64,000 bases of DNA, from positions 18,981 to 82,980 of the forward strand of contig CAVTCZ010000002.1 in the NCBI GenBank assembly GCA_963733395.1, given 5' to 3'. The translations under genes and the position numbers were made by a program. The stretch is from an uncultured Actinomycetota bacterium (GTDB lineage: Bacteria; Actinomycetota; Actinomycetes; S36-B12; UBA10799). Every line of letters starts with the position of its first letter. Positions within the stretch are counted from its first letter, which is position 1. The notes under the pieces are model-generated. The model was given only the letters and a program-made list of their open reading frames with translations, did not search any database and was not told where the DNA came from. This document shows, piece after piece, positions 628 through 40,915 of this stretch.

Positions 628-706
628 GTGGGGCAATCGCCCCGCAGACAGTATGCCTCATGCGGCGACGGCGTGGGCCCGGCGGTTGTGGTGAGCGGCA
701 CCGCGC

Positions 707-825
707 GAATGTTGCGTTGTTGCTGGCTCCTCCTGCCGAGTGTTGCGCCGTTGCTGGTTTGAGGCCCGCCGAACCAGCAACCGTGCAACAGTCGCGCGGG
801 ATCCACAGCAACAACGCAACACTCG
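707..825. repeat. Nested-palindrome intergenic repeat, copy A (119 bp)
   Basis: Four copies of a ~22-nt motif are present. Two are direct: GAATGTTGCGTTGTTGCTGG at 707-726 and GAGTGTTGCGCCGTTGCTGGTT at 738-759. Two are inverted: AACCAGCAACCGTGCAACAGTC at 772-793 and CCACAGCAACAACGCAACACTCG at 803-825. The same architecture recurs at 9038-9155 and 39624-39742. Confidence 0.85.
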
Positions 826-869
826 TGCGGCCGAGAGGGCCACAACCAGGCCCCGCCTACAGTGGCGCC

Positions 870-2649
870 ATGACCCGCGGCCTCATCCTGTCCCAGCGCG
901 ACCTCGAGTTCCTGCTCTACGAGTGGCTGGACGTCGAGGCCCTCACGGCGCGGGAACGGTACGCGGAGCACTCCCGGGAGACTTTCGACGCGGCGCTGGA
1001 CCTCAGCGCAACCGTGGCCGAGAGGCACTTCGCTCCGCACAACAAGCGCAATGACGCCGAGGAGCCCACGTTCGACGGCGAGCGCGTCCACCTGCATCCC
1101 GAGATCGCAGCGGCGCTCAAGGTGTTCCACGAAACGGGCCTGATGTCCGCCGGGATGCCGGCCGAGGTCGGCGGCATGCAGCTGCCGGCGGTCGTGACCA
1201 TGGCCTGCTTCGCCTGGTTCCAGGCCGCGAACGTCAGCACCTCCGGGTACCCGTTCCTGACCATCGGCAACGCGAACCTGCTGCTGGCCCACGGCAGCCA
1301 GGAGCAGATCGACACCTACGTGCGCCCCATGCTGGAGGGCCGGTTCTACGGGACCATGTGCCTGTCGGAGCCACAGGCCGGCTCCTCGCTGGCCGATGTG
1401 GCCGTGCGCGCCGAACCGCAGGCCGACGGCAGCTACCGGCTGTTCGGGAACAAGATGTGGATCTCCGGCGGCGACCACGAGTTGACCGAGAACATCATCC
1501 ATCTCGTGCTGGCGCGGGTGCCCGGTGCGCCGCCCGGGGTGAAGGGCCTGTCGCTGTTCATCGTGCCCAAGTACCTCGTCGACTCCGGCGAGCGCAACGA
1601 CGTCGTGCTGGCCGGGCTGAACCACAAGATGGGGTACCGCGGCACGACGAACACGCTGTTGAACTTCGGCGAGGGCAAGCACCTGCCCGGCGGTGATCCC
1701 GGTGCGGTCGGGTACCTGGTCGGCGAGCAGAACCGCGGACTGGCCTACATGTTCCACATGATGAACGAGGCGCGGGTGGGCGTCGGCGTGGGAGCGGTCG
1801 CGCTCGGCTACACCGGCTACCTGCACGCCCTCGACTACGCCCGCACCCGCGAGCAGGGCCGGCCGCTGCGGGACCGGGATCCCGCCGTCGCCGCAGGTGC
1901 CGATCATCCAGCACGCCGACGTCCGCCGGATGCTGCTGGCGCAGAAGGCGTACGTCGAAGGTGGCATGGCGTTGAGTCTCTACTGCGCCCGTCTGCTCGA
2001 CGAGCAGGTCTGCGCGGTCAGCGAGCAGGAACGCACCGAGGCGGGGCTGCTGCTGGACGTCCTCACCCCGATCGCCAAGAGCTGGCCCAGCCAGTGGTGC
2101 CTGGAGGCGAACTCGCTGGCCATCCAGGTGCACGGCGGCTACGGCTACACGCGCGACTACGACGTGGAGCAGTTCTACCGGGACAACCGGCTCAACCCCA
2201 TCCATGAGGGGACGAACGGCATCCAGGCGCTGGACCTGCTCGGGCGCAAGGTCATCCAGGCCGACGGCGCCGGGCTGCAGTTGCTCCTGGCGCGGATCGC
2301 GCAGACCTGCAGCCGCGCCGATGGCGACCTGGGCGAGTACGGCACGGCGCTGCAGGAGGCGGCGGGCCGGTTGGCGGCGACGACGATGAAGCTGTGGGGT
2401 CCGCGTGATCCCGAGCTCGCGCTGGCCAATGCTTCGGTCTATCTCGAGGCCTTCGGGCACACCGTCGTCGCCTGGCTCTGGCTCGAGCAGATGCTGGTGG
2501 CGCGGGTCGGCGATGGACCGTTCTACGACGGCAAGTTGGCAGCCGGCCGCTACTTCTTCGCTTTCGAACTGCCCAGGACCGGCCCGCAGTTCGATCTGCT
2601 GGACAGCCTCGACCGCACGACGTTGGACCTCGACCCAGCCGCCTTGTGA
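870..2649 (+). CDS. Long-form acyl-CoA dehydrogenase (FadE-like, ~590 aa), interrupted by one +1 frameshift near 1885
   Basis: The frame-0 part (870-~1885) contains LSEPQAGSSLADV and FGNKMWISGGDHELTENIIHLVLAR. The frame-1 part (to 2649) contains PIIQHADVRRMLLAQKAY and NPIHEGTNGIQALDLLGRK. Removing one C in GCCGTCGCCGCAGG restores ..DPAVAQVPIIQH.. Confidence 0.85.
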
Positions 2650-5124: not shown

Positions 5125-5350
5125 CCTGGTCGGCCGGGGCTGGAAGAACGGTCGTTGTGTCGCCTGCTGGCCGGTGGCGCTGGTCCGCTCGTACCAACGG
5201 CCACAACGTCTAACGCCGCGCTGCGATCGCGCGGACGGCTGACCCCCGGACCACTGGCCGACCCAACTCCCCGCTGGAATCCGAAGGTCCGCTACGCCCA
5301 TGAATGCGTCCGACCTTGTGGAAGCAGGGTCGCGGCGGTGTCGGAGGGAT

Positions 5351-8280: not shown

Positions 8281-8967
<687 letters not shown>

Positions 8968-9037
8968 GGCAGTGATTCTGTCAGGGATCGCGGGCGGTGG
9001 CAGGGTTTCGGTCGGGCGTGCCGGTGGCCGGGGTGCC

Positions 9038-9155
9038 GAGTGTTGCGCGGTTGCTGGTCGTGCGGCCCGAGTGTTGCGCGGTTGCTGGTTTCCAGGCCCG
9101 AAACCAGCAACGGTGCAACAGTCGGCGGGGCGGGCCCGCAACGGTGCAACAGTCG
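9038..9155. repeat. Nested-palindrome intergenic repeat, copy B (118 bp)
   Basis: GAGTGTTGCGCGGTTGCTGGTC and GAGTGTTGCGCGGTTGCTGGTT are direct. AACCAGCAACGGTGCAACAGTC and CGCAACGGTGCAACAGTCG are inverted. The copy lies between the MFS stop and the response-regulator start. Confidence 0.85.
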
Positions 9156-9185
9156 CCGACCAGCGCGGCCCACGCCCCCGCCGGC

Positions 9186-10728
9186 TCACCGTGAGGGTGT
9201 GGCCACCCGGTGCCGCGCGGGCAGCCACAGCAGCGCCAGCACCGCACCGATCGCCGTGGCCCCGGCCGCCACCAGCGACCCGGCCTGGAAGCCGGACATG
9301 AAGGCGGACTGTGCGGCCTGCAGCAGGGCGGCGCCATTCGGGACCTGCTGCGACAGCACGACCGCTGCACCCATGGACTCCTCGGACAGCGCGACCACCT
9401 GCTCCGGGAATCCGGCCAGGCCATCGACCACCTGCGGACCATACAGACTGGCGAAGACCGACCCGACCAGGGCGACGCCGAGGGTTCCCCCCAGCTCCCG
9501 GGTGGTGTCGTTCACCGCCGAACCGACGCCGGCCTTCTCCGGCGGCAGTGCGCCCATGATCGCCTCGGTCGCCGGGCTCGTGGTCAGCCCGAGCCCCGCG
9601 GCCATGACGACCATGCTGGCCAGCACCGGCCCGAAGTACGCGCTGTCGGCGGTCAGGGTCGACGCCATCACGAAGCCCAATGTCATGAGCCCGAGCCCGC
9701 CGGCCACGACGGCCTTCGTCCCGACCCGGTGCATGAACACGATCGACAACGGTGAGAGGACGCCGGTCACCACCGCGAACGGCACTGTGCGCAGGCCCGC
9801 CTGCAACGGGCTGTAGCCCTGGACCAACTGCAGGTACTGGGTGATCAGGAAGATGAAGCCGAACAGCCCGAAGAAGGCCGACGCGATGGCCGCACTGGCC
9901 GCGGAGAAGCGCGGGTTGCCGAACAACGACACGTCCAGCAGCGGATAGCGGGTGCGCAGTTCCTGCACAACGAACGCGGCGAGCAGCAGCAGGCCAGCCG
10001 TGCCGGTCAGCACCACCTCCGGGGAGGTCCAGCCGCGGTGCGGGGCCTCGATCACGGCCCAGACGATGGCCGCGATCGCCAGCACTGAACAGCACCAGTC
10101 CGAGCCGGTCGAGCCGCCCGGGACGGGGGTCGCGGGAGTCGGGGATGAGCAGGCGTCCGGCGAGCAGTGCCAGCGCGGCGATCGGGATGTTGACCAGGAA
10201 GATCGAGCCCCACCAGAAGTGCTCGAGGAGCAGGCCGCCGGTCACCGGACCCGCAGCGACCGCCAGGCCGGTCACGCCCGACCAGATGCCGATGGCCATG
10301 GCCCGCTCCCGGACGTCGGTGAAGACGTTGATGATGATCGCCAGCGTGGCCGGGAAGATCAGGGCGGCACCGACCCCCATCAGCGCCCGGGCCCCGATGA
10401 GTTGCTCGGTGGTCTGCGAAAGGGCGGCCAGGCCGGAGGTGAGCGCGAAGAGCAGCAGACCGAGCTGCAGCGCGCGGCGCCGACCGGTGCGGTCACCGAA
10501 GTAGCCGAAGGCGAGCAGAAGCGCGGAGAACACCAGGGTGTAGGCGTCCACGATCCACTGCAGGTTCGCGGTGGTCGCAGACAACTCCTCGCTGAGGGTG
10601 GGCAGCGCGACGTTCACGATCGTGTTGTCCACGACGACCATGAACAGGCTCAGGCACAGCACGGCGAGGATCCCCCACTTGTGGGTGGTCCGCGGCGGCG
10701 CGGTGGGGGCGGTTGCGACAACGGTCAT
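9186..10728 (-). CDS. MFS drug-efflux transporter (DHA2/EmrB-QacA type, 14-TMS), one +1 frameshift near 10090
   Basis: The N-terminal half contains LFMVVVDNTIVNVALPTL, FGYFGDRTGRRR and LLLEHFWWGSIFLVNIP. The C-terminal half is in another frame (VLAIAAIVWAVIEAPHRGW ... LWLPAR). Confidence 0.85.
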
Positions 10729-13893: not shown

Positions 13894-13931
13894 ATGCGGG
13901 TTCTGCCCGCTGGGTCCCGAGCGCCACGTGA

Positions 13932-14630
13932 ATGGGGGGTTTCGTGAACGTGTTTGAGCGAGCCCAGTCCCGACTTGCGAGGATGGCACTGAGAACTCTG
14001 CTGGCACCCCGTAGGCCTGCTACATATGTGCGCCTGGGAAGCGATTACGGCGGCTGGTGGGTCCCCCGCTGGGCGTTGCTGCCGGGGAATCTCGCGTACT
14101 GCGCAGGGGTGGGTGAGGACCTCACCTTCGATGCCGAACTGATCGCGCATGGAATGAATGTCGTGGCCTTCGATCCGACACCCCGTTCAGTGAGTTTCGT
14201 CAAGGACGCGGACTTGGGGCCTGCCTTCGATTTCGAACCCGTGGGTTGGTGGGACAGCACCGGCACCCAGCGTTTCTACGCTCCTGAAGACCCCACGCAC
14301 GTCTCACACTCTGCGGTCAACCTGCAGAAGACAACGGAGTACTTCGTGGGCCGGGTCGAGACGGTCGCTTCGATCGTGAAGCGACGGGGGGACGGAATTC
14401 CCGACGTTGCAAAAATGGACATCGAGGGTGCGGAATTCCACGTTCTGCGATCCATGGTCGCTGACCGGATTCTCCCCCCCGTGCTCTGCGTCGAGTTTGA
14501 CCAACCTGCACCGCTTCGGTCGGTTCGGCTCGCCATTCGCGCGCTGCAGGCACTCGGCTATCGGGTCGAATCCGTGGAGGGATGGAATGTGACGCTCGTG
14601 AAGGGCGGCGATTCTCAGAGCTCGTCGTAG
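13932..14630 (+). CDS. FkbM-family methyltransferase
   Basis: ..NVVAFDPTP.. and the hallmark ..VAKMDIEGAEFHVLRSM.. Intact 232-aa ORF; start choice uncertain. Confidence 0.75.
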   Translation: MGGFVNVFERAQSRLARMALRTLLAPRRPATYVRLGSDYGGWWVPRWALLPGNLAYCAGVGEDLTFDAELIAHGMNVVAFDPTPRSVSFVKDADLGPAFDFEPVGWWDSTGTQRFYAPEDPTHVSHSAVNLQKTTEYFVGRVETVASIVKRRGDGIPDVAKMDIEGAEFHVLRSMVADRILPPVLCVEFDQPAPLRSVRLAIRALQALGYRVESVEGWNVTLVKGGDSQSSS

Positions 14631-15730
14631 ATGGACAGCATCCGCTCAACCCATGTCTGCTCGCGATAGCGCGCCTGGTACGCGCCGTGCGCGAGATCGC
14701 GGCCGCGTTGCCCGGATTGCGCCACTCTTGTCATCGCCGCCTGCAACGAGTCTGCGTCTTCGTACGTCCACTCAGGGGAAACCTCCGCGACGAGGTCTGC
14801 TCCTGCGCTACCTGCTCGGGCCAGTACCGGCAGTCCGCAACTGAATGCCTCGAGGATGACGAGAGGGCAATTCTCCCGATTCATGCTGGGGAAGACGAGG
14901 CCCGTGTAGCTGCTGAGGTGCGAAGCCACCCACTCCCGCGATTGACTGCCGAGCAGTGTGACGTCGGGATGGCTGAAGGCCTCCAGCTCACCGCGCACGG
15001 GGCCGTCCCCGGCGATATCCAAACCAATGCCGTGCGGCCACTGGCGGAGTAGGTGAGCGAAACCCTTTGCTTCGTCGAGGCGTCCGAGCGCGATCCAGCG
15101 CTGATGCTGCGGCTGAGGCCTGCATTCTCCCAGCGATGGCACACCATGCGGAACAACACGGAGTCGCGCTGGGTCGAGTCCGTACCCTTCGAACGTGTCG
15201 GCGGAACGGCGGCTCAACGCGACGACTCTGTCAGCCCGAGCCAGGAGCGGAGTCTTCACACCGGCGAGGTTCTTCACCGCAAGGGGCAGGGTCGCCAGCG
15301 CCGAATCCCGGTAGCACCGGTACCGTAGCGCCGCCAGCGGGTTTCCATCCGGACACAGGGTGCAATCGTTCCCATCGCGCCATAACAGGGCATTGGCGCA
15401 AAAGTGGCGAAAGTTGTGCAGCGTGGCCACGAGAGGGCCGTCCCATCGGGTGACCCAGTGTTCTCCGAAGTTCGGGAACAGGTTGTGGACGTGCACCACA
15501 TCAGGGCCGAATGCTCGCAGTTCGTCCATGGGATTCGGACCCCGACCGGTTGCGACCGTGATTGCCGACACAATTGGACTGAAGGGTCCTGAATGGTCGT
15601 CTGTGCGTCGAGCCACGATGCGCACCCCATGCCCCGCGCGCTGCAACGCTTCGGCTTGTGCCAGAACGATCTCGTTCTCGCCGCTCGGGCGCTCAGATCG
15701 GTAGAAGGAGTGGACGAAGGCTATCCGCAT
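14615..15730 (-). CDS. Glycosyltransferase family 4
   Basis: Intact 371 aa. MRIAFVHSFYRSERPSGENEIV.., VHVHNLFPNF and a GT-B C-terminal half with ..FPSMNRENCPLVILEAFSCGLPVL.. Confidence 0.85.
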   Translation of the reverse strand: MRIAFVHSFYRSERPSGENEIVLAQAEALQRAGHGVRIVARRTDDHSGPFSPIVSAITVATGRGPNPMDELRAFGPDVVHVHNLFPNFGEHWVTRWDGPLVATLHNFRHFCANALLWRDGNDCTLCPDGNPLAALRYRCYRDSALATLPLAVKNLAGVKTPLLARADRVVALSRRSADTFEGYGLDPARLRVVPHGVPSLGECRPQPQHQRWIALGRLDEAKGFAHLLRQWPHGIGLDIAGDGPVRGELEAFSHPDVTLLGSQSREWVASHLSSYTGLVFPSMNRENCPLVILEAFSCGLPVLARAGSAGADLVAEVSPEWTYEDADSLQAAMTRVAQSGQRGRDLAHGAYQARYREQTWVERMLSIYDEL

Positions 15731-15755
15731 GTGCCTCAGCCGACCCTCGGACTGA

Positions 15756-16571
15756 TCATGTCAGTGCGTCCAGTCGTGCGACGTGCACCAAACGCCCGGC
15801 GGCCCAATGACCCGCGGGTTGCTCCTGAATGGCTGCGAAGGCTGAGCCGGTGCGAGTTGCCAGGTCGGCCGTGACGGTATTCCAGGCCCCGTTCTGCACG
15901 ACCACGATCGGGAAGTCGGCGCTGGCCAAGGCCGAGGTGACCTCACGCTCGGTCTCGACCGGGTCGGGCACGGAGTCCGAGAGCAGGAACCCGACCTTCC
16001 TGCCGTGGAGCACGCTTCCCAGCACCTCGCTGCCTTTGCCGCACTCGAACTGCAGGTGCGGGGTGTGCCGTCCTACCAGTCGTCCCGCAAAGGGATCGAC
16101 ATCGATGCTCAGCAGCTCACCCGGTGCATTCTCTCCACGGTTCCTCTGCAGAGCTCGGAGTATCACCAGTGACCCGAGGCCGTGCCGTACACCGATCTCC
16201 ACTGCCAGGGCCGGCCTGCGGGAGCGGAGGCAGGCGTAGGTGATGGCGTGGCGGCCCAGCGGTGGCCGACGCTTGGATTCCGGGTGCCATCGGCTGGCCG
16301 TCCGGATCGTGGCAGCGAGACCAGTGTCGCTGCGCAGTTCCTCCAGATACTCACGGATCGTGTCCGCAGACTCTCCCAGCACGGGGCTCAACTGGCCCGC
16401 CACCCGGTCAGGGCCGGCGAGTTCATAACTGAAAGTGTCCAACTCCGGATCCCACAGCACATAGCGGATGCGTTGGCGAGGAGTCGCTGATGTGCTGGAG
16501 ATGATCTGAGACTTGCGCCACCAGCGGAGGCGATTGAGCGGGCGAAGGCCTGCCTTGAGGGACGGTTTCAC
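15756..16571 (-). CDS. Class I SAM-dependent methyltransferase (putative sugar O-methyltransferase)
   Basis: Motif I-like ..PALAVEIGVRHGLGSLVIL.. followed by ..LLSIDVDP.. The start is uncertain: GTG at 16571 was chosen, but the ORF stays open to 16721, where it would overlap the divergent gene. Confidence 0.6.
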   Translation of the reverse strand: MKPSLKAGLRPLNRLRWWRKSQIISSTSATPRQRIRYVLWDPELDTFSYELAGPDRVAGQLSPVLGESADTIREYLEELRSDTGLAATIRTASRWHPESKRRPPLGRHAITYACLRSRRPALAVEIGVRHGLGSLVILRALQRNRGENAPGELLSIDVDPFAGRLVGRHTPHLQFECGKGSEVLGSVLHGRKVGFLLSDSVPDPVETEREVTSALASADFPIVVVQNGAWNTVTADLATRTGSAFAAIQEQPAGHWAAGRLVHVARLDALT

Positions 16572-16685
16572 GGCCCCCCAACGACGCTCGGGGGCCGGTC
16601 GATGCACACCACATAGAGTAGCAACGTGCGACCGAGCGTCCGGCCGTCTTGGGAACAGGCCAAGCGTGCTGTTCGCGGCGCAATC

Positions 16686-17552
16686 ATGGAGAGGGAGTGG
16701 GCGATCTGCCTGCTCGACCAATCCCTCGACGAGTTACTCGAGGGCCAGACCCTGGCCGGCAAGACCTTCAAGCCCACAGACCAGCGCACTTACTGGGCCG
16801 ACCCTTTCGTCGTCGCTGAGCGGTCTGACACCTGGATCTTCGTCGAGGAATTCAGGCGCAGAAGAGGGCTCGGTGACATTGTGGCCCTGAAGGTCACGAA
16901 CGGCGCTGTCACGTCGCATGGCACCGTTCTCACCGGGGACCATCACATCTCCTTCCCCCAAGTCCACCGTTTCCGCTCTGGCTGGATCGCCACGGTTGAG
17001 ACATGTGATCCCGACGTACGCGTTCACCAATTCGATGAACCTGGTCAGCGATGGCGGGCCACGGAATGGCGCTTGCCCGCCGACCTCATTGACCCCCAAC
17101 TGACGCGCATGAAGGACGGCCGGTGGCGCTTAACAGCGACATCGCGATTGCACTCGGGCTACGGGCCGGTGACGACATGGATCTCGGCGGGGCAGGAACC
17201 GGTGCACTGGACCGTGATCGACGTCCGCGACCACGGGCTGATGGCTCGCGGCGGCGGCACCAGCGACGCCGAGCGCGGGCTGCGGGCCGTCCAGGACTGC
17301 ACGGAGAACTACGGCCAGGCGCTGTCCCTGCGCAACTGGCCCTCAGGGACTGCGGTGCGCGATCTGCGGGGACCTGAAGTCATCACGCGGCCAGAGGCGG
17401 GCTGGCTCGGCCTCCATACCTGCTCTTGGACCACGACCGGCTCAACGGTGGTCGTGGACCTTTGGCGGCGTCGCTTCCAGCCACTGTCCCCGCTGGATCG
17501 GTTCAGGGAGTTCCGCCGGGATCCTTGTCGCAGGGTTGGCGGCGTGGAGTGA
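16686..17552 (+). CDS. Hypothetical protein conserved in polysaccharide loci (function unknown)
   Basis: Intact ORF with a coding-like composition: MEREWAICLL..YWADPFVV..WIFVEEF..ISFPQVHRF.. I recognise no catalytic motif with confidence. Confidence 0.55.
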   Translation: MEREWAICLLDQSLDELLEGQTLAGKTFKPTDQRTYWADPFVVAERSDTWIFVEEFRRRRGLGDIVALKVTNGAVTSHGTVLTGDHHISFPQVHRFRSGWIATVETCDPDVRVHQFDEPGQRWRATEWRLPADLIDPQLTRMKDGRWRLTATSRLHSGYGPVTTWISAGQEPVHWTVIDVRDHGLMARGGGTSDAERGLRAVQDCTENYGQALSLRNWPSGTAVRDLRGPEVITRPEAGWLGLHTCSWTTTGSTVVVDLWRRRFQPLSPLDRFREFRRDPCRRVGGVE

Positions 17553-17569
17553 GACCTCGTCGACTAGCT

Positions 17570-18667
17570 ATGGTGTGGCCCTACTTGGCGGCGTATAGAT
17601 TCGCGTTCTGCGATGCCGCTCACGCCCGACTCGCCGAGGAGCGCATCGAATTCGAGTTGTGGACCGGCAAGCCGTCGGCCGCGCAGACTCAGCGCCAGGA
17701 TCGGGTCGCGGCGTCGTGGCACCGGGTCTTGCCCGAACGCCGCCTACATGTCAGCGGCAAGGAACTGCTTTTCCGTCAGCTCCCCTCCTCTGTAGATCTT
17801 CTGGTGGTCGAGCAGGCCGTGAAGAACCTGGAGAGCTATCCGGCGTTGCTGCGACAGCACTTGAGTGGCCCCAGCGTTGCCATGTGGGGTCACGGTCGCA
17901 CGTTCTCCACACCACAAGGCAAGTCACTCGGCGTGCTCAAGCAGTTCGTGACGCGGCGCGCACAATGGGCATTCATTTATACCGACGAAGGTGCCGACTA
18001 CGTGGTCGAGCACGGGTTTCCGCGCGATCGGGTGACCGTCTTGCACAACACCATCGACACGGAGACGCTCACCGAGGACTTGGCCTCGGTGACCGAGGAT
18101 GAGGTGGCAGACTTCCACAAGACCCACGGCACGCCGCCGGGTCGCACCGCACTCTTCTTGGGGGCCCTGGACCCAGCCAAGGGGACAGATTTCCTCCTGC
18201 GGTGTGTCGAGACGACACCCGGACTGACCATCGCTTTCGGGGGGGCGGGCCCGGCCGAGCCGACACTGCGCCGGGCGCAGGAGGCAGGGGCTTCCATCCG
18301 GGTTGTCGGTCGCCTCGACGGCCATGAGAAGGCTGTGGCGCTTCGCGCCGCGACAGTGCTCGCTATTCCGCAAGCCATCGGGCTTGTCGCCGTGGACTCG
18401 ATGGCGGCAGGCTTGCCGATCGTCACCACAGATGTTCCGCTGCAAGGGCCGGAAGCCGGCTACTTGAAGGATGGGGTCAACAGCCTCTGGGTGCACCGTG
18501 ACGCGGATGCGGCCCATTACGGCGCATCGCTGATGCAACTGCTGGGTGACCCAGCGCTGCTAGGACGATTGCGACAGCGCTGTCTGGCGGATGCCGCCGG
18601 GTACAGCCTCCCCGAAATGGTGGACCGTTTCGTTGGTGGTGTGCTCACCTGGAGCGGCCGCGCGTAA
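17570..18667 (+). CDS. Glycosyltransferase family 4
   Basis: GT-B C-terminal signature ..LFLGALDPAKGTDFLL.., ..AIGLVAVDSMAAGLPIVTTD.. ATG at 17570, in frame with ORF 17426..18667. Confidence 0.8.
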   Translation: MVWPYLAAYRFAFCDAAHARLAEERIEFELWTGKPSAAQTQRQDRVAASWHRVLPERRLHVSGKELLFRQLPSSVDLLVVEQAVKNLESYPALLRQHLSGPSVAMWGHGRTFSTPQGKSLGVLKQFVTRRAQWAFIYTDEGADYVVEHGFPRDRVTVLHNTIDTETLTEDLASVTEDEVADFHKTHGTPPGRTALFLGALDPAKGTDFLLRCVETTPGLTIAFGGAGPAEPTLRRAQEAGASIRVVGRLDGHEKAVALRAATVLAIPQAIGLVAVDSMAAGLPIVTTDVPLQGPEAGYLKDGVNSLWVHRDADAAHYGASLMQLLGDPALLGRLRQRCLADAAGYSLPEMVDRFVGGVLTWSGRA

Positions 18668-18734
18668 CCTGGCTTGTGAGCGCCGACTGCGCGTTGCATC
18701 GTAGGCTCAGACTGCGTGGGTAAGGTAGGTCGTC

Positions 18735-19985
18735 GTGCGAGCACCCGACAACGTTGCGGGCATGGACCCGGTGCTGGGTCGTGCGGTTGACGTGGTCCTG
18801 GTGATCGCACTGCTGGACTCCCTCGCGTATATGCAGCGAGTCTGGCCGGTGGAGTACTCCCCGACCCGGTCGGTCTTCGTCTTCTACCTCCTCGCGTTGA
18901 GTGCGCTGCTCGGTCGCTTCTGGCGCAGAGTCAGTGCACCCGTACTGGCCTCGACGCTCTTGATCGGCGTACTGGTTGTCGTCGGCCACGTGACCTGGAC
19001 AGCGAACTACTCCTGGCAGACAGCCACGAACTACTGGCAGGACTGGCGCCTGATGGTCGGCTTCCTTGCGTTCGGCGCCGCCTACGGAACGGTGCGTTGG
19101 CGCAGTTGGCGGGTAACGCTACTGGTTGCCGGACTGAGTGTCGCCGCTGTCCAGGCCTTCGGCCTCGTGACCGGCAACCTGACGCAAGGGGGGGGCGACG
19201 CGTCCTTCTATTACTACCGGCAAATCAGCGCGTCCGCCGCGCTGCTGATGATCGTGGGCATGCTCATCCTGCTCCTGGATTCGCCTGTAGAGCCCAGGCT
19301 CTCTGCGATTCTGGGGTCGCTGCTAGGTGTGAGCATCGTCGTCTGCCAGCACCGGAGCGTCTGGCTCTCGCTGAGTGTGATCCTCGTTCTCAGCTCGATG
19401 CGACTGTTCAGAGAGCGATCTCCCGCGCTGGCCTGGGCGCCCATCGCAGCGACGTTGGCGCTCTGGGTGACCACTTTGCTGCTGGCTGCGGTCGCCCGCG
19501 TGCAACTGCTACCCGGTGCCGGAAGCGATTCGGGTGCCCGTCTTCCGGAGGCCGCTGCCTCGTCGGGTTCGGTCGAATGGCGCCTCGAGATGTGGAGAAC
19601 TCGGCTAGTGGTCGCGAGGTCCCTGGACGACGTCCTTTTCGGCGGCACCTTTGGTCCGACGATGGCGCTGGGTCCGGATGCGATGGTGATGAATCCAGCG
19701 AACAGCGCCCACAATCTGATCCTCGATCAGTGGATCATGCTGGGGTTGGTCGGTCTTGTGGCGGTGTCTGTGCTCGTTGTCACCGTGTTGGTAGGCAGTC
19801 GAGATCGTCTGTCATTGGTGCCGGTTATGACCTGGGGGATGCTGGCCTTCGGTGTGTTCTACAACTGGCCGCCCTGGTTCTGGCTCCTGATCGGTGTGGG
19901 CAGTGCCGCGGCGTATTCGAGGAGCAACGTACCAAACGGGGCAACCCTACGAACTCAGCACCGGGTCGGCCACGCGAACGTGTAG
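18735..19985 (+). CDS. O-antigen polymerase/ligase-family (Wzy-like) membrane protein
   Basis: About 10 predicted hydrophobic segments and the Wzy_C-like motif ..NSAHNLILDQWIMLGLVGLVAV.. Start uncertain (18735 GTG or 18762 ATG). Confidence 0.7.
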   Translation: MRAPDNVAGMDPVLGRAVDVVLVIALLDSLAYMQRVWPVEYSPTRSVFVFYLLALSALLGRFWRRVSAPVLASTLLIGVLVVVGHVTWTANYSWQTATNYWQDWRLMVGFLAFGAAYGTVRWRSWRVTLLVAGLSVAAVQAFGLVTGNLTQGGGDASFYYYRQISASAALLMIVGMLILLLDSPVEPRLSAILGSLLGVSIVVCQHRSVWLSLSVILVLSSMRLFRERSPALAWAPIAATLALWVTTLLLAAVARVQLLPGAGSDSGARLPEAAASSGSVEWRLEMWRTRLVVARSLDDVLFGGTFGPTMALGPDAMVMNPANSAHNLILDQWIMLGLVGLVAVSVLVVTVLVGSRDRLSLVPVMTWGMLAFGVFYNWPPWFWLLIGVGSAAAYSRSNVPNGATLRTQHRVGHANV

Positions 19986-20032
19986 GGCCAGGCCGCTCGG
20001 CGTAGGTTCGTGCATGCGGAGAGGAGAGCCAG

Positions 20033-21217
20033 GTGCACATCGCTGTTGTCGGCCCGGCCTCCCCTGTGCGGCTGGCTGGCGAGCTCGATGCATCGGACCG
20101 GCGGCACGCTGAGGGGTACCTCGACCTCGGCGGAACCGCTGTTGTCGAGCTTGTCCGCAGCCTGCTTGCGAAGGGCCACCGAATCACAGTGGTCACGGCG
20201 CATCACTCCCCGGGGTTCGGGCCGGCGCGATTCGTCGGACCCAATCTGGACATCGTCGTAGCCGCGGGGCGTACGCGCGCGCGTGACTGGCTGGGGGATC
20301 TGTATCACGTCGAGAGACGGCAGATGATGCAGACCATCAGGGACGCGAAGCCCGACATCGTTCACGCGCATTGGACCTACGAGTTTGAGTTGGCCGCGCA
20401 AGACAGCGACCTGTTGCACGTCACCACAGCCCGCGACTCGCCTTTCACCATTCTGCGAAGGACGAGGGACATGTACCGGGTGGCCCGCCTGGGGGTGGCT
20501 CTGCGGGCCCGGCCCGGAATCCAACAACTGTCTGTGGTGTCGCCGTATCTGGCGACGGCATGGCGACGGCAACTGCTCTACAGACGACCGATCCGGGTAA
20601 TGCCCAATTCGATTCCGCAGGACGTTCTGACTATGAGGCGTGATCCGGCACCGCACCCGGTCGTCACCTACATCGCCGACGCCGGTCCGCTCAAGAACGT
20701 CCGCACGCTTCTGCAGGCGTTCCGCCTGGTGCGTGCGTCAATTCCTTCCGCCGAACTCCACCTCATCGGAGCGGGACTGGGTCCTGGCGAGCATGCCGCC
20801 CTATGGGCTGAGACCGGCGGACTAGCCCAGAACGTGAGGTTCCTCGGTCCCTTGGCTCGCGAACAAGTGGCCTTCGAATTGAGCATCTCCTGGCTCTACA
20901 CCCACGCTTCGCTTGAGGAGTCGTTTGGTAATGCGGTTCTCGAGGCGGCATCCGCTGGTGTTCCGGTGCTGGGGGGCCGACGCAGCGGTGGCGTCCCGTA
21001 CGTCCTGGGGTACGGTGCTGCGGGGTGGTTGACCGATGTCAGGAATCCTGCTGCGCTGTCCGAGTCGATGGTTGCCCTCCTGGATCGGCCGCATTCACCG
21101 CCGCCGACTACGAGCGCCTATCTCGCGCGGTTCGCGCCAGAACATGTTGCCGCAGATTACGTGGCCTGGTACGAGTTCACGCTGGAACACCATGCGATCG
21201 GCCATCCCACACCTTGA
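20033..21217 (+). CDS. Glycosyltransferase family 4
   Basis: GTG start preceded by GGAGAGGAGA. MHIAVVGPASP.., VHAHWTYEF and ..ASLEESFGNAVLEAASAGVPVLGG.. Confidence 0.85.
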   Translation: MHIAVVGPASPVRLAGELDASDRRHAEGYLDLGGTAVVELVRSLLAKGHRITVVTAHHSPGFGPARFVGPNLDIVVAAGRTRARDWLGDLYHVERRQMMQTIRDAKPDIVHAHWTYEFELAAQDSDLLHVTTARDSPFTILRRTRDMYRVARLGVALRARPGIQQLSVVSPYLATAWRRQLLYRRPIRVMPNSIPQDVLTMRRDPAPHPVVTYIADAGPLKNVRTLLQAFRLVRASIPSAELHLIGAGLGPGEHAALWAETGGLAQNVRFLGPLAREQVAFELSISWLYTHASLEESFGNAVLEAASAGVPVLGGRRSGGVPYVLGYGAAGWLTDVRNPAALSESMVALLDRPHSPPPTTSAYLARFAPEHVAADYVAWYEFTLEHHAIGHPTP

Positions 21218-21228
21218 GTCGACGCTTG

Positions 21229-22689
21229 TCATCCCCGCGTCAGCCCCCGCGTCGACAGCAGACGCCAGAAGGTGGTCCTGCTCCTGAGGAGCCACAGCAG
21301 GGCAACCTCAGCAGCCGCTGCGGCCGCGAGGAGAGCCAGTTCTGCGAGGCTGCTCAGCGGCAGTAAGGAGATCGGGAGAAACACGAGGCCGCAGGCAACC
21401 GCCTGGAACAGGAGCACCAGGCGGACGCCGGACCACCACTGCCGGGGTGCGAGAAGGTCGGCTCTCGCTAAGGGGAACACGTACCACATCGACGAAAGCA
21501 CCCGTCCCGCCAGCAGGCCGACGGCAGCAGGCAGGGGGGTGTGTTGCTGGAAGGTCACGAGCGCACCGAGGAGAGTGCAGATCGTGGCGATGATCCACCC
21601 GATCACCGTGACTCGAAACCTCCCGAGCGCTTCGAAAGCCGTTCCCAGTGGGACCCCGATCATTGGCATCACACCCAGTAGTACGGCGATCCCCGCCAAC
21701 GAGACGGCTTCGCTCCAGCCGGGCCCGAGCAACAACTCCAGAAAGGGTGGTGCCGCAAAGTAGCCAATGCCCCCTGCGACGATCACCGGCCACGAAATCA
21801 GAATCATGATCTCTGTGAAGGCTGACTGGTTCCGCGACACGGGTCCGTCGGGCCGCAGTTCAGGAAACAGTGCGTAGTTGAAGGACGCCTGAAGGGCGGT
21901 CAGGGGTGCGGTGATCAGCGATGTTGCCCGGTTGTAGGCGCCTAGGGCATCCGTCCCCGCGAACCGGGAGATCGACCAGCCGGAGATGTTCTGGCTGCTC
22001 ATCCGCAGGAGGTTCATGCCAGAGGCGCGGACGGCGTAGTTGATGTCCTTGCGTGCATGGCGGGGGGAGAACAGGGGGAATCGTCGATCTGAGGGAACCC
22101 TCCGAGCAGTCACGAGTATGGTCGTTGCCCCGGCCACGAGGAAACCGATAGTCAGGCTCCAAGGAGCGCGCGCGCTTACTACGGCGGCCAGACCCACCCC
22201 GATGCCCACCAACTGGCCTGTCACATTCGCGGCGGCGACCCGCGTCGTCAGACCTTGTCTACGCAGCACCCCGTTGTACACCGACTGCACAGCGACCACG
22301 GGCAGTCCCAGGCACATCAGCCGCGTGAGTGTGGTCGAATCCGGAACCGCCCACAACTGTGCCCAGGCCGGAGCAACGAGGACCCCGAAGGCCATCGCGA
22401 CGATACCCAGGGAGGCGCCCGCCCCGAGCAGCGCGCGATCGACATCAGCAGTATCCTCATCGCGGCGGGCTGCGCTGAGTTCCAAGGAGGCTCCGGCCAG
22501 CACACTCAGCAGTCCGACGCCGGCAAGAGCCACGGCGTAGGCCCCGAATGCTGGCGGTTCCAGAATGCGGGAGGAGGCGGCGGCGTAGCCCAGCTGCACC
22601 AGCATGACCACGATGGAGCCAGCCGACATTGCGACGAAACCGCGAAAGACGCGTACCGCCCCTGGCTTGGTCACTGCCTGGTGTTCCAT
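21229..22689 (-). CDS. wzx: Polysaccharide flippase (Wzx, MOP superfamily)
   Basis: About 486 aa and highly hydrophobic, with 12-14 TM-like segments. Its position in the glycan locus fits a flippase. ATG at 22689. Confidence 0.75.
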   Translation of the reverse strand: MEHQAVTKPGAVRVFRGFVAMSAGSIVVMLVQLGYAAASSRILEPPAFGAYAVALAGVGLLSVLAGASLELSAARRDEDTADVDRALLGAGASLGIVAMAFGVLVAPAWAQLWAVPDSTTLTRLMCLGLPVVAVQSVYNGVLRRQGLTTRVAAANVTGQLVGIGVGLAAVVSARAPWSLTIGFLVAGATTILVTARRVPSDRRFPLFSPRHARKDINYAVRASGMNLLRMSSQNISGWSISRFAGTDALGAYNRATSLITAPLTALQASFNYALFPELRPDGPVSRNQSAFTEIMILISWPVIVAGGIGYFAAPPFLELLLGPGWSEAVSLAGIAVLLGVMPMIGVPLGTAFEALGRFRVTVIGWIIATICTLLGALVTFQQHTPLPAAVGLLAGRVLSSMWYVFPLARADLLAPRQWWSGVRLVLLFQAVACGLVFLPISLLPLSSLAELALLAAAAAAEVALLWLLRSRTTFWRLLSTRGLTRG

Positions 22690-23288
22690 GCCTGACCACG
22701 GACGAACCAGGTGCACTGCGTGTCTTCATGCACCGCCCAGGTCCCGCCCAGTTCGGCTCGCCAGGTACGTGCGATCGCTGCCTCGCCTGACCTGTGCGTG
22801 TCATCGAGCAGAACAGCACATCGCTCAGACATGCGGTCCTTGACCAAGTGGATCGCGGGATAACGGTCGTGTGCCCATTCCGACCTGTAAGCGGTCGGTC
22901 CATCCACGAGCACCAGATCGATGGCCTCCTCGAGATCCAGGTTGTTGTCCCGAAGCGCGTACCAACGGGACACCCGTAGGGGTGAGTCCTCCGTGTAGGA
23001 AGCGAGTGGACGATGGATGATCTCCGTGTGGGCGTAGGAGAATGGTTGTAGCCGCTCGCGCAGGTAGCCCGCCCACTCCGCGTCCTCCTCGACGGCGATG
23101 ATGTTTATCGCCGTTTTCGTGTGTTCCGCCCAAGCGGCCATGATCAGAGTTGAGAGTCCAGGCCCGAATTCCACGATGCTGCGCCGACGGTTGAGTTCCA
23201 GCTCGTTGCAGATTGTCAGTGCGACCGCAGGGGAGATGGAGGATCCCGTCCAGGGCAGGAAACGGTCGATGAGGGGACTCAACTTCAT
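22671..23288 (-). CDS. Class I SAM-dependent methyltransferase
   Basis: ..RRSIVEFGPGLSTLIMAAW.. (motif I) and ..LVLVDGP.. ATG at 23288; an upstream GTG near 23370 is also possible. Confidence 0.6.
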   Translation of the reverse strand: MKLSPLIDRFLPWTGSSISPAVALTICNELELNRRRSIVEFGPGLSTLIMAAWAEHTKTAINIIAVEEDAEWAGYLRERLQPFSYAHTEIIHRPLASYTEDSPLRVSRWYALRDNNLDLEEAIDLVLVDGPTAYRSEWAHDRYPAIHLVKDRMSERCAVLLDDTHRSGEAAIARTWRAELGGTWAVHEDTQCTWFVRGQAWNTRQ

Positions 23289-23379
23289 AAGGGCGACTGC
23301 ATCCCGACGCTGTCGTGGCGATCGTCGACGATCCACTCGTGCGCGTGCCCTCCATAGGTATTTGCTCACGACGTTCGGT

Positions 23380-24492: not shown

Positions 24493-24656
24493 AGGGCCCC
24501 TTTGCGTCTGCCCTGAAGGCGTAGTGATCGGTCAAGGTTCTCTGCGGCTTCCGCCGACGATGGCAATGACTCTCCCACATGCCAGGCCGCTGTGATGCCC
24601 TCCCGCAGGCACCTTGACTCGCGCACGGGGTGGGAATCCGCTGATACGCTCCTACC

Positions 24657-34934: not shown

Positions 34935-35004
34935 CGGTGCCGGGTGGTTCCCCCGGTCGCGGGTCCGTCGCGGGGGCTGCCCGCGAGAGCGGTCGGGCGG
35001 TTCG

Positions 35005-35070
35005 TTAGAGGTTGTCCCGTTGGTTAGAGAAGACACGCGTGCTTTCTCTAACCAACGGGACAACCTCTAA
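35005..35070. terminator. Long near-perfect hairpin between convergent genes (second member of the ACGCGT-core family)
   Basis: TTAGAGGTTGTCCCGTTGGTTAGAGAAG-acACGCGTgc-TTTCTCTAACCAACGGGACAACCTCTAA, a ~28-bp stem. Confidence 0.7.
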
Positions 35071-35113
35071 CCAAGTGCCCGGAAGAGGCCGGGCGGGTGA
35101 CGGACCGGCGGTG

Positions 35114-38207: not shown

Positions 38208-39472
38208 ATGAGACTGCTACTCGCAGGGCTGGTCACGGGGGTCGTCGCCACCGGGCTCGCGCTGCCCAGCACCACAGCCGCACCTCGAGCCGCTGGGCCT
38301 GCACCGGATGCCCGGGTCACCGTCGCCACCTACAACATCTGCAAGCGCAACTGCGGCACGGGCAAGTTCGCCTGGGACAAGCGACGGGACGCGATCGTAC
38401 GTTCCATCGCGGCCTCAGATGCCGACGTGGTCGCCTTGCAGGAGGCGGCCGGGACGGTGGACGAGTTGAGTCCGTTGCTGGCGTCCAAGGGGTACACGTT
38501 GGCCAACACCTGGACCGCGGATTGCCCCGATACATCCACCCGGTGCACCTCGGATTCCTTCATCTTCTATCGCGCGGCCGCGATCGCAATGGCTCCGCTT
38601 CGCACACCCAACCCGCCGATCCCCGAACGCTGCGTGCCCTACATCGGCGCGACCGAACCGCCCTTCATCGCGCCGGAGTTCACCCAACAGCCACCGACGC
38701 CACCGGACATCGATCCGTGGGATCCCGACTCTGAGCGGTTGTGGGACCAGTACTGGGCGGCCCGTCGAGGCCTACGATCAGGCCGAGGAGGAATGGCGGG
38801 AGGCCGATCGTCGCTTCAGCGATCGGGTGAACGCATGGTGGGCTGATTACGAGTCCTGCGAGCCGTACCAGAGTTGGACCCCCTTCCATGAGACGGCTGA
38901 GGACACGCTGGGCCTCTCGCAGGTCATCAAGGCGCCCTGGCCGCGGGCCATCTGGGACCGTGGCTGGTCCTACGCGTACCTGCGTGACCGGCGCACCGGC
39001 CGCGACTTCCTGGCTGTGTCATTGCACCTGCCGAATGAGAAGACCGCCCAGGGCGAGATGGCTGCGCCGTGCCGGCGCTCGGGGTGTGGTCGCGTTCATC
39101 AAGTCCGACCTCGCGGCTCGTGGGGTTCCGGGGTTGCCGGTCGTACTGGCGGGGGACCTGAACTCGTATGCGCGCAGGCAGCCCCGAGGTGCGCAGTTCA
39201 TCCTCGGTCGCGCGGGTTTCCGGGACGCCTACCAGGCCCGCCGGAAGGTGCACGGGGACGCGGCCACGGTCAATGTCACCACCATCCACAAGGACCCGTT
39301 CCCGGATCGGCCGTTCACCGCCGCTGACCCGGCGCGGATCGACTACATCCTGGTGCGCCGGGGAAAGCCGACCCGGTACGAGGTGTTCCTGCGGCTGCGC
39401 CACGGGCGCTTCGATGATCGCTTCCGCGGCAGCGACCACAACATGGTGGTCGCCGGACTGCGGCTCGGCTAG
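38208..39472 (+). CDS. Endonuclease/exonuclease/phosphatase (EEP) family secreted protein, two +1 frameshifts (~38760, ~39060)
   Basis: Signal peptide, then ..VTVATYNICKRN.., ..DADVVALQEA.., then ..VVLAGDLNSY.. and ..IDYILVRRG..GSDHNMVVAGL. ATG at 38208 follows GGAGG. Confidence 0.75.
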
Positions 39473-39623
39473 GACATGTCCGAGAAGTGGCTGGCGCGGT
39501 GCTTGGGGCCGGCCCGACCCGGCCACGTGTGAGAGGTCCGGGAACAGCGTCTGAGCGAACGTCGCGACACTGGCCGGCGCTTCTGCGGACCTGTGTGGGG
39601 GTCTGCCGCCAGGGCTGGGGCGC

Positions 39624-39742
39624 GAGTGGTGCGCGGTTGCCGGTTGCCCGAAGCGAGTGGTGCGCGGTTGCTGGTTCTGGGGGTGCGAAACCGACAACCG
39701 TGCAACAGTGGCGGTCCGCGGATAGCAACCGCGCAACAGTCG
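39624..39742. repeat. Nested-palindrome intergenic repeat, copy C (119 bp)
   Basis: GAGTGGTGCGCGGTTGCCGGTT and GAGTGGTGCGCGGTTGCTGGTT are direct. AACCGACAACCGTGCAACAGTG and ATAGCAACCGCGCAACAGTCG are inverted. The copy lies in a 500-bp convergent gap. Confidence 0.85.
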
Positions 39743-39973
39743 CGGGCGCGGACCACACCCGGTGCTGAGCACCACGCTGGTCCGGACCTGTCCACGGGGC
39801 GGCGGCTCGCGGTGGCCAGCCACCCGTCCGCGCCCAGCCGACGCGGACGAGCCGACGACTGAGCCGACTCTGAGCGGGTCCGAGTGCCGGTCCGCGTCGC
39901 GTGCAGCACCCGGACAGAGCCGACCCTGAGACCAAGGCCGCCCTCACGCACCGTGCCGGCACTCCTCAGGCTC

Positions 39974-40915
39974 CTAGCCGCAGGTCCAGTCCGGCACCGG
40001 CAGCGGCTCGCCGTCGAGGAACGCCGAAATCACGTCGGCGCTGTGCTCTGGGTCTTGGAACAGCACCGAATGCCCCGCGGCAGGGACAGTCAACCCGCGG
40101 GCGCCGGGCAGCAGGTCCCGGAGCGCGCGACTGTTGGCCGGCGGTGTGATGACGTCGCGGGAGCCGACCATGACCAGCACGGGGGTCGCCACTGCACGCA
40201 ATTGCTCGGCGTTACTGTCCGAGCGCAGCCACGGGTCCTCCGCAGCGACCATCGCGTCGTACGTGGCCGCGGGCACCCGCGGCACCGGGTATCGCCCGGA
40301 GTCCACGGCGGCTTCCAGCCGATCCAGGAATGCACTTCCGGCCGCGCGGGCGCAGGCCGTCGGCGGGTAGTTCGTGCGCAGGTACGTGCGGTCTCCCGCC
40401 TCGGGGTCGCTGTCGGCGCGCTGCACCCAGCGGGGTCCGAGTCGTGCACGCCGGCCACCCGGGTTGGTGCCGACGAGCACGGCGCGGTTGATCCGCTGCG
40501 GGGTGCGCCGCAGCAATTCCTGGGCGATGAAACCGCCCATCGACCACCCCAGCACGTCCGCGCGGGCGACGCCGATGTCGTCGAGCAGGCCGGTGGTGGC
40601 CCTGGCCAGCCCGGCGAAGGTGCGCGGCACCGGGGCGGTCGAGTCCCCCAGCCCGGGATAGTCGAAGACGATGACCCGCCGGTCCGCGGCCAGGCCCGCG
40701 AGGAATGCCGGGTCCCACTCGCTCATCGGCGACGCGGTGCCGTTGAGCAGCAGCAGTGGCTCACCGGAACCGAGTTCCGCCCACGCGATCCCATGATCGG
40801 TCGTCCGGACGTCAAGGCGCACCTCGCCGACTCGCGGCGCGGGAGCGGCTGCCTGCGGTGCCGCACAGCCGGCCGCCAGGAGGAGCACCAACGCAACCGT
40901 CCGCACGTGGCCCAC
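39974..40915 (-). CDS. Alpha/beta hydrolase (lipoprotein)
   Basis: Lipobox ..LLLAAGCAAP.. and nucleophile elbow ..VLGWSMGGFIA.. Intact 313 aa. Confidence 0.85.
   Translation of the reverse strand: MGHVRTVALVLLLAAGCAAPQAAAPAPRVGEVRLDVRTTDHGIAWAELGSGEPLLLLNGTASPMSEWDPAFLAGLAADRRVIVFDYPGLGDSTAPVPRTFAGLARATTGLLDDIGVARADVLGWSMGGFIAQELLRRTPQRINRAVLVGTNPGGRRARLGPRWVQRADSDPEAGDRTYLRTNYPPTACARAAGSAFLDRLEAAVDSGRYPVPRVPAATYDAMVAAEDPWLRSDSNAEQLRAVATPVLVMVGSRDVITPPANSRALRDLLPGARGLTVPAAGHSVLFQDPEHSADVISAFLDGEPLPVPDWTCG

Follow-up and report, generated by a model that had tools for sequence, protein, structure and literature searches.

Introduction

Much is known about the interspersed palindromic repeats of Proteobacteria, which serve in strain typing, as hot spots of IS insertion, as mRNA stabilisers and as partners of domesticated transposases; to our knowledge such repeats have scarcely been described in Actinomycetota. 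In the REPIN-RAYT system two inverted REPs make up one hairpin, and a single-copy RAYT, which is a Y1 transposase, is flanked by REPs in the same genome. ERIC is a continuous imperfect palindrome. Transposon ends with several repeats are represented by the IR-DR of Tc1/Sleeping Beauty and by the multi-site ends of IS21, Tn7 and Mu. In integrons, the attC core sites R''/L'' and L'/R' fit RYYYAAC/GTTRRRY, stand a few bp apart and go together with an integrase or a cassette array. A CRISPR array holds at least three direct repeats of 23-50 bp with spacers of 26-72 bp and usually cas genes.

By definition, a REP is a 20-40 bp unit that is itself a palindrome with a stem of 5-13 bp, and the proximity of REPs to stop codons has been described (PMC3733652). 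REPs are extragenic repeats of high copy number that favour co-directional or convergent gene pairs and the vicinity of 3' ends. MITEs are recognised by terminal inverted repeats of at least 10-15 bp and a target-site duplication (TSD) of 2-10 bp, and their prokaryotic size is 50-800 bp (PMC11602168). Neither of these two papers on palindromic repeats mentions Actinomycetota. In enterobacteria, intergenic repeat units such as ERIC/IRU are imperfect palindromes of 127 bp (PMC2759123).

Here we describe the GTTGC element, a modular palindrome found three times in the window, i.e. the whole 64-kb stretch of DNA that was analysed. It probably represents an undescribed interspersed repeat family of the REP/REPIN/ERIC kind, spread and maintained via a trans-acting protein and with RNA-hairpin consequences for those copies that are co-transcribed. 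The element breaks short-read assemblies and could be used as a lineage marker for an uncultured clade.

Results and Discussion

Architecture of the GTTGC element

The three elements of the window are intergenic, about 120-123 bp long and together hold 12 copies of the 23-nt motif CGAnTGTTGCnnnGTTGCtggtt. Within each of them the order is motif, spacer, motif, loop, inverted motif, spacer, inverted motif (+ + - -), a layout that an earlier note had read from the letters and that the 12 core matches reproduce. The 22-nt consensus of that note gave 7 matches in the window at up to 3 mismatches, with 0.00 expected from 100 dinucleotide-preserving shuffles, and the core GTTGCRYNGTTGC gave 13 matches at up to 1 mismatch with 0.73 expected, 12 of the 13 lying inside the three elements. 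A covariance model (R1), built from 11 family members, returned exactly three matches in the window (704-827, 9035-9157 and 39621-39744) and no degenerate extra copies there, which places the coordinates reported earlier within 3 nt.

Alignment of 51 motif instances yielded the consensus C-G-A-n-T-G-T-T-G-C-[G/A]-[C/T]-n-G-T-T-G-C-t-g-g-t-t in which about 15 positions are near-invariant and position 4 and the central triplet vary freely; its 5' end CGA(n)TG is present in 44-45 of the 51. In every two-tier arm examined, from several genomes, the period from motif start to motif start is exactly 31 bp. The inner motifs are 34-35 bp apart, giving centre spacings of 31, 34-35 and 31 bp, while spacers measure 8-10 nt and the central loop 11-12 nt. 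The 23-nt motif CGAnTGTTGCnnnGTTGCTGGTT contains no internal inverted repeat, and pairing occurs only between left-arm and right-arm motifs. The outer motifs form inverted repeats of 20-25 nt with 90-92% complementarity, and the palindrome runs a few bases past the motifs. The exact 31-bp period, the non-complementary spacers and the common polarity of the three copies go beyond what the earlier note had described.

The copies, designated A, B and C, share as lineage-specific characters a G.G mismatch in position 4 and, within the inner right arm, a T that results in a G-U/G-T pair. All four motifs of one element tend to have an identical central triplet, which suggests homogenisation within elements. 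Spacers of A, B and C exhibit no mutual similarity, though the motifs are about 90% identical, and the flanks are mutually unrelated as well. A recent transposition burst would not give unrelated spacers together with motifs of about 90% identity; the combination rather indicates that the copies have long resided under selection or that they serve a host function. Spurious ORF calls arise from the element: P0121 and the C-terminus of P0122 are translated repeat.

Genomic context in the window

Copy A (704..827, +; R1 114 bits) has its motifs at 706-728(+), 737-759(+), 772-794(-) and 805-825(-), its loop at 760-771 and its spacers at 729-736 and 795-804. The left neighbour is tRNA-Gly(CCC) at 556-627 on the - strand (ARAGORN; Rfam 70.4 bits), separated by 76 bp, with A upstream of the tRNA 5' end. 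On the right, an acyl-CoA dehydrogenase gene (870..2649, +; Pfam) starts 42 bp away. The context is divergent, and A lies upstream of both neighbours.

Copy B (9035..9157, +; 111 bits) consists of motifs at 9037-9059(+), 9068-9090(+), 9102-9124(-) and 9135-9155(-) with the loop at 9091-9101. It is located 67 bp upstream of the start of an OmpR-type response regulator (8281..8967, -; Pfam Response_reg and Trans_reg_C), the exact product of which is present in a public collection. B begins 28 bp past the stop codon (at 9186, -) of an MFS transporter gene whose C-terminal part covers 9186..10085 on the - strand (Pfam MFS_1; GC3 frame plot), and its context is co-directional. Copy C (39621..39744, +; 105 bits) has motifs at 39623-39645(+), 39654-39676(+), 39689-39711(-) and 39722-39742(-) and the loop at 39677-39688. 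The 3' part of an endonuclease/exonuclease/phosphatase-family gene (39086..39472, +; Pfam Exo_endo_phos, frame plot) and an alpha/beta-hydrolase gene (39974..40915, -; Pfam Abhydrolase_1, frame plot) converge on C, which lies between the gene ends 39472(+) and 39974(-). ARAGORN, Pfam and GC3 frame plots thus bear out the three different contexts that had been assigned to the copies.

The window has a GC content of 67.6%. Its genes, called by GC3 and ORF length and each scanned with Pfam, are ordinary chromosomal ones, including two-component systems, an H-NOX module, a polysaccharide cluster and sulfate assimilation. The closest named relatives of the neighbouring proteins come from MAGs labelled Actinomycetota or Candidatus Nanopelagicales. 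As a side observation, the region of about 13900-27200 shows a GC content of 62-65% versus 67-71% and holds the polysaccharide biosynthesis cluster, with genes for GT4 glycosyltransferases, a Wzy-like polymerase, a flippase, FkbM-type methyltransferases and an epimerase. This block was possibly acquired horizontally.

Distribution of the family

About 10 further distinct copies were found outside the window, in metagenome contigs and in one Actinomycetota MAG. A scan of genome contigs was performed with the pattern GTTGCN3GTTGC-N16-20-GTTGCN3GTTGC, which is loose and mostly matched 8-bp tandem repeats; among the matches listed, at least one true member was found in the uncultured Actinomycetota MAG (L073). 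A metagenome scan with an inverted-pair pattern gave 52 loci, and several true members are among those of 63-68% GC. The same architecture is present in L121/L133 and L153, and a single-tier version in L124/L145; L142/154/162/164 are one locus seen in four samples, and L176 carries two copies. The covariance model added a degenerate second copy in L154 as well as L135, from a subfamily in which GCGAC replaces the first GTTGC and the 31-bp period is kept. With a six-frame translation of the element as protein query, two matches were obtained, namely the window's own contig and L176. Where copy density was measured it amounts to 3 in 64 kb (window), 2 in 10.8 kb (L176) and 2 in 13 kb (L154). The host of the family is a clade of uncultured Actinomycetota with 65-69% GC.

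The contigs L121, L124, L145 and L176 end inside a copy or within about 55 bp of one, as is typical of assembly breaks at a repeat. The earlier note had named a local duplication restricted to the window as an alternative. The small copy number is the only point in favour of this explanation, or of chance, and both can practically be dismissed: matches exceed expectation (7 and 13 versus 0.00 and 0.73), copies occur in unrelated contigs and samples, and A, B and C have unrelated flanks.

All copies are extragenic (13 of 13). A stop codon is found within 28 bp in seven of them, among which are the intercistronic copy of purH-folD and some convergent pairs with the element as the whole intergenic spacer. 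The neighbours (MeaB, a solute-binding protein (SBP), the enoyl-CoA hydratase ECH, a glycosyl hydrolase (GH), MFS, purH-folD, GGDEF) are mutually unrelated, which argues against a regulon.

Copy C is 85% identical to both L176 copies, including loop and right spacer. The two L176 copies are 95% identical to each other over about 240 bp, which takes in the spacers and about 60 bp of flank per side; they are inverted and 6.4 kb apart, and their flanks carry an inverted repeat of their own, GGATTTCAGCGGGGAGTC. The pair is the only clearly recent duplication seen.

Two minor observations were made at these loci. The sequence GGACCTTCGGATTYCAGCGGGGAGT stands solitary at 5262-5290 of the window and recurs in L116 (about 6028) and in L176 (4187, 10595 and 10790), where it occurs as inverted repeats flanking both GTTGC elements, resulting in composites of about 240 bp; it may represent a repeat family of its own or a palindrome that is preferred as a target. 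L133 (467-632) and L121 (33-198) have only 166 bp in common, at 97% identity. This part comprises the inner and right portions of the element and about 75 bp in which a gene for a protein with a Tat-like signal peptide (MGRELSRRRLLG) starts. The two contigs differ in the left outer motif and left spacer as well as in everything beyond, which suggests recombination at the element or assembly chimerism.

Comparison of strains and relatives

Orthologous intergenic regions had been proposed as a place to look for presence/absence differences, and such differences were found. L116, about 98% identical to the window, keeps A and B, and L172, likewise about 98% identical, keeps A and ends before the B site. 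Copy A is identical in these contigs. In copy B, 8 positions distinguish the window from L116; they all fall in the spacers, the loop or the free triplet, with 0 differences in the 60 conserved motif positions.

The contig L170 stems from a syntenic relative with the same gene order and 80% amino acid identity in the acyl-CoA dehydrogenase. Across its 21.8 kb the GTTGC element is absent, and the spacer that separates tRNA-Gly from the acyl-CoA dehydrogenase gene lacks copy A and is shorter by about 106 bp. At the equivalent of the B site, upstream of the orthologous response regulator, L170 carries two copies (17420-17711; 88% identical) of another nested palindrome of about 110 bp; their arms consist of two or three 19-bp repeats with a 19-bp period. 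One intergenic site can therefore host different repeat families depending on the lineage. In six contigs with a response regulator of at least 90% identity, the element is absent upstream of this gene, and the upstream neighbour differs there. A clean empty site was not seen in a very close relative, and the lineage difference at the A and B sites may reflect insertion as well as loss in the relatives.

Overall, the family occupies multiple loci in several genomes, is strictly intergenic, often stands right after stop codons and is lineage-specific. The earlier suggestion of a REP/MITE-like family, putatively of high copy number, stands in the broad sense, given the copies in other contigs and genomes, their constant intergenic position, the relatives without them and the assembly breaks; under the strict definitions of REP and MITE it does not.

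Further observations concern the surroundings of copy A. Directly downstream of tRNA-Gly, at 514-557, there is a hairpin with a 20-bp stem and 95% complementarity. It probably serves as terminator of the tRNA, and its position is shared by L170. The acyl-CoA dehydrogenase gene at 870-2649 is split between two frames near 1765-1900, one frame encoding the N and M domains and the other the C-terminal ones. In the approximately 98%-identical contigs L116 and L172 it is intact with 592 aa, and the gene call on the window's contig is a 239-aa fragment (P0125). The split is explained either by a frameshift due to assembly or sequencing or by a pseudogene specific to the strain.

Folding and the possible role as RNA

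Two-tier hairpins are predicted for A, B and C on both strands, as RNA and as DNA, in line with the long two-tier hairpin proposed before, and in both forms their stability greatly exceeds that of shuffled sequences. For the + strand, the RNA minimum free energies are -95.0 (A), -87.5 (B) and -71.9 kcal/mol (C) with z-scores of -12.7, -5.9 and -2.6. The DNA fold energies of A, B and C are -48.5, -47.9 and -42.0 kcal/mol. All three copies have the same polarity with respect to the G-rich strand, and in each the + strand folds better. With n=3 this shared polarity is not significant on its own, and it is not consistently backed by other loci: the better-folding strand of L153 and L124 is off the GC skew, and the two L176 copies are mutually inverted. 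At the loci of clear transcription direction (B, L153, L124) the better-folding strand, with its G-U pairs, is antisense to the mRNA.

In an alignment of nine copies, 87.9% of the cells in the two helices of 20 and 23 pairs are paired, compared to 30-53% in a slid control with the 3' partners moved by 1-3 columns. Nine pairs have changed on both sides, and the observed covariation score was reached by 4 of 500 shuffles. Motif position 4 is mismatched in most copies, usually with G opposite G. Spacer columns pair at 40.5% in an 11-copy alignment, which is the level of the shuffled and slid controls. The hairpin is accordingly to be described as two helices with an internal loop of about 11x11 nt, fixed in length and free in sequence.

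These folds raise the question of whether the element acts primarily as RNA, be it by terminating transcription without a U-tract, by blocking 3' exonucleases or as an RNase III processing site, and was selected for this, its dispersal being secondary. The great stability of the predicted RNA hairpins on both strands, the seven of 13 copies within 28 bp of a stop codon, including purH-folD and the tight convergent pairs, and the presence of compensatory pairs are in accordance with such a role. However, copy A lies upstream of both flanking genes, the mRNA at B, L153 and L124 corresponds to the strand that folds less well, and the fixed length of the spacers and their unpaired state are left unexplained. 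A terminator scan found no U-tract terminators at A, B or C, no sigma-70-like promoters were predicted at these copies, and no Rfam family is matched at the gathering threshold. We therefore regard a primary RNA function as unlikely. An intrinsic terminator in the usual sense is excluded by its defining test at A, B and C, where a hairpin with U-tract is lacking and copy A is upstream of both neighbours. The earlier statement that a terminator cannot explain all copies holds for A with its divergent promoter region, but is weakened for the family by the seven of 13 copies that abut a stop codon; due to these, many copies may still have a role as RNA 3'-hairpins.

Constraint and protein recognition

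Constraint falls on the motif sequence and the distance between motifs, and not on the spacer sequence. Selection of this kind implies specific recognition by a protein, which would be expected to keep motifs and distance and to leave the spacers free and unpaired. Recognition on a folded single strand and recognition on duplex DNA both fit the pattern, which cannot separate the two.

On duplex DNA, the element could be a protein-binding array with a host function, in which four phased sites are bound cooperatively, be it by a global regulator or by a protein of the architectural or nucleoid-associated kind; its palindromy would then be the symmetry of a dimer of dimers and not a matter of hairpin formation. 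A clustered binding site with four half-sites had been considered in the earlier note, and it agrees with the 31-bp phasing (about three helical turns), which is rigid across genomes while the spacers are free and non-complementary. Moreover, position 4 and the nnn triplet, which vary, alternate with invariant blocks as they would in a binding site, changes within the species avoid the conserved positions, copy A lies in a divergent promoter region, and the polarity has no consistent relation to transcription. The proposal is at odds with the neighbouring genes, which lack functional coherence, and with the many copies at gene 3' ends or in convergent intergenic regions, which are rarely places of regulator action. 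Corresponding sites in relatives are without copies, compensatory changes between the arms are not needed for duplex binding, and the L176 duplication takes in about 60 bp of flank per side. A host-function array is for these reasons doubtful.

Mobility genes, target sites and databases

None of the Pfam-scanned gene calls of the 64-kb window is a transposase, integrase, RAYT or Y1/HUH protein, in agreement with the earlier statement on transposases, and no transposase, RAYT or integrase stands beside the other copies at the loci examined. A parent IS with these ends was not seen at any locus examined. A consistent TSD was likewise not found, as had been stated: the best direct repeats of 2-7 bp vary in offset and length and overlap the random distribution.

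A scan of viral contigs gave 0 matches, and BLAST against plasmids and phages no match. The comparison with Rfam 15 that the earlier note had recommended let only the tRNA pass the gathering threshold; the best sub-threshold matches are miRNA-precursor hairpins with at most 22.6 bits, compared to thresholds of 73-124. A literature search with the motif strings retrieved 0 papers. Together with the definitions of REP, MITE and attC, these comparisons leave the element without a named family, as before.

Transposon ends of the IR-DR or multi-site type have two binding-site-like repeats per end, as in the GTTGC layout. The element might be a cut-and-paste MITE derived from a DDE transposon with two transposase-binding repeats per end, and its two direct and two inverted 23-nt sites with conserved spacing as well as its size, inside the prokaryotic MITE range of 50-800 bp (PMC11602168), would suit this origin. 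Like MITEs such as the Correia elements, it is small and non-autonomous and has inverted repeats, and its outer motifs (20-25 nt, 90-92% complementary) are terminal inverted repeats of the required length. In contrast to MITEs, it has no consistent TSD of 2-10 bp, which excludes it by definition, and direct repeats of 2-7 bp are near random expectation; a related autonomous IS, or a parent IS with these ends, was absent at the loci examined. Furthermore, the palindrome extends past the motifs, and the spacers diverge completely between copies. A DDE-derived MITE is accordingly very unlikely.

Relation to known repeat systems

The element resembles REP/REPIN/BIME in being a short, non-coding, palindromic, multi-copy and lineage-specific repeat that is strictly extragenic and often found right after stop codons or between convergent genes. 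In both cases inverted units give rise to larger hairpins (PMC3733652; for the REPIN definition PMC3337134), the length of linkers can be conserved while their sequence varies, and nesting inside other palindromes is possible, as seen here in L176 (PMC3733652). The units differ in arrangement, since those of GTTGC are in tandem within each arm (direct, direct, inverted, inverted), whereas REPs alternate or form simple doublets. The motif unit is not self-complementary and does not form a stem-loop of its own, which excludes a REP as defined (PMC3733652), and the 51 instances show no terminal GTAG or CGTC as REP tag. REP/REPIN of Proteobacteria are mobilised by RAYT transposases, whereas the host here belongs to the Actinomycetota and no RAYT was seen in the window or the loci examined. 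A REPIN-like hairpin of inverted units is present, and Y1_Tnp was not found in the 64-kb window or at the loci examined.

Like ERIC/IRU, the element is an imperfect palindrome of roughly 120 bp that is dispersed over intergenic, often transcribed sequence, and in both a transposase gene and a clear target duplication are lacking. There is no sequence similarity between them, and GTTGC is modular, with four motif repeats and unpaired spacers of fixed length.

Integron attC sites are alike in their sequence of site, spacer, site, variable centre, inverted site, spacer and inverted site, and in forming a hairpin with conserved mismatches and strand asymmetry. They are excluded by GTTGCGC and GTTGCTG, which have a pyrimidine at the R position, by a site period of 31 bp instead of about 5-8 bp, by the solitary and dispersed copies and by the lack of an integrase in the window. 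A CRISPR array is incompatible with two direct repeats per arm, spacers of only 8-10 nt, an inverted second half and the absence of cas genes in the window, and the earlier remark that CRISPR-like spacers are missing was right. Among Ter, Chi, DnaA-box, parS and CRP-like sites we know of none that fits the motif or the dispersed palindromic layout. By their defining tests, the GTTGC element is outside REP, MITE, attC, CRISPR and intrinsic terminators. Its dispersed, extragenic, lineage-specific and palindromic nature, the frequent position at gene 3' ends and the lack of a linked transposase and of a TSD assign it to the REP/REPIN/BIME/ERIC type.

Proposed mode of spread and maintenance

For a repeat family of this type that depends on a trans-acting protein, the following course can be proposed. 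As single-stranded DNA or RNA, the element would fold into a pair of 20-23-bp helices, interrupted by an unpaired internal loop of about 11x11 nt and capped by a loop of 11-12 nt; as duplex, it would present four sites on roughly one face of the helix. A motif-recognising protein acting in trans would catalyse the insertion or duplication events that give rise to copies; it may be a transposase, domesticated or encoded by an IS, with the hairpin or the four-site duplex as its substrate. Afterwards the copies would be kept under constraint. Those that are co-transcribed would give strong RNA hairpins, which could serve as 3'-end barriers or processing sites.

A more specific version, which we put forward only tentatively, sees the element as the cis-partner of a dedicated, vertically inherited protein. 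This would be a symbiosis like that of REPIN and RAYT, evolved independently in Actinomycetota and with a different repeat architecture, with siblings of 19-bp period (window 34994-35081; L170 17420-17700) as parallel systems. A domesticated transposase or a structure-specific DNA-binding protein would then read either the four phased sites or the two-helix hairpin with its conserved mismatch at position 4.

Other repeats

A second, different nested palindrome is located at 34994-35081 of the window, where an arginase-family gene (33924-34934, +) and a histidine kinase gene (35114-36403, -) converge. It contains two GTTSGTTAGAG per arm with a 19-bp period; the arms are 89% complementary without a loop, and the DNA fold energy is -40.6 kcal/mol (z -10.7). 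It resembles the palindromes of 19-bp period in L170 (17420-17700; GTTGGKTGACG...).

Numerous palindromes of another kind, in which 3-5 tandem TGTTGCNN octamers are followed by their inverse, were observed in contigs of low GC content (34-41%) from the samples Ga0208544, Ga0129327 and Ga0136655 (L165). The contigs concerned are L117, L120, L123, L131, L134, L137, L138, L141, L143, L144, L147, L148, L150, L157, L161, L163, L165 and L166. These palindromes are an abundant repeat family of an unrelated low-GC organism; the GTTGC pentamer and the 8-bp sub-period that they have in common with the GTTGC element were both selected by the search pattern. Direct repeats with GTTGC-N3-GTTGC cores were also found, namely a 30-bp tandem array (GTCGTTGCGGGGTTGCGATCGCGGCCCCAG) with at least 5 copies in Actinomadura mexicana (L103, 1256-1400) and a tandem array of about 32 bp containing GAGTTGCGTCGTTGCTGG in a Microbacteriaceae contig (L106, 1-160).
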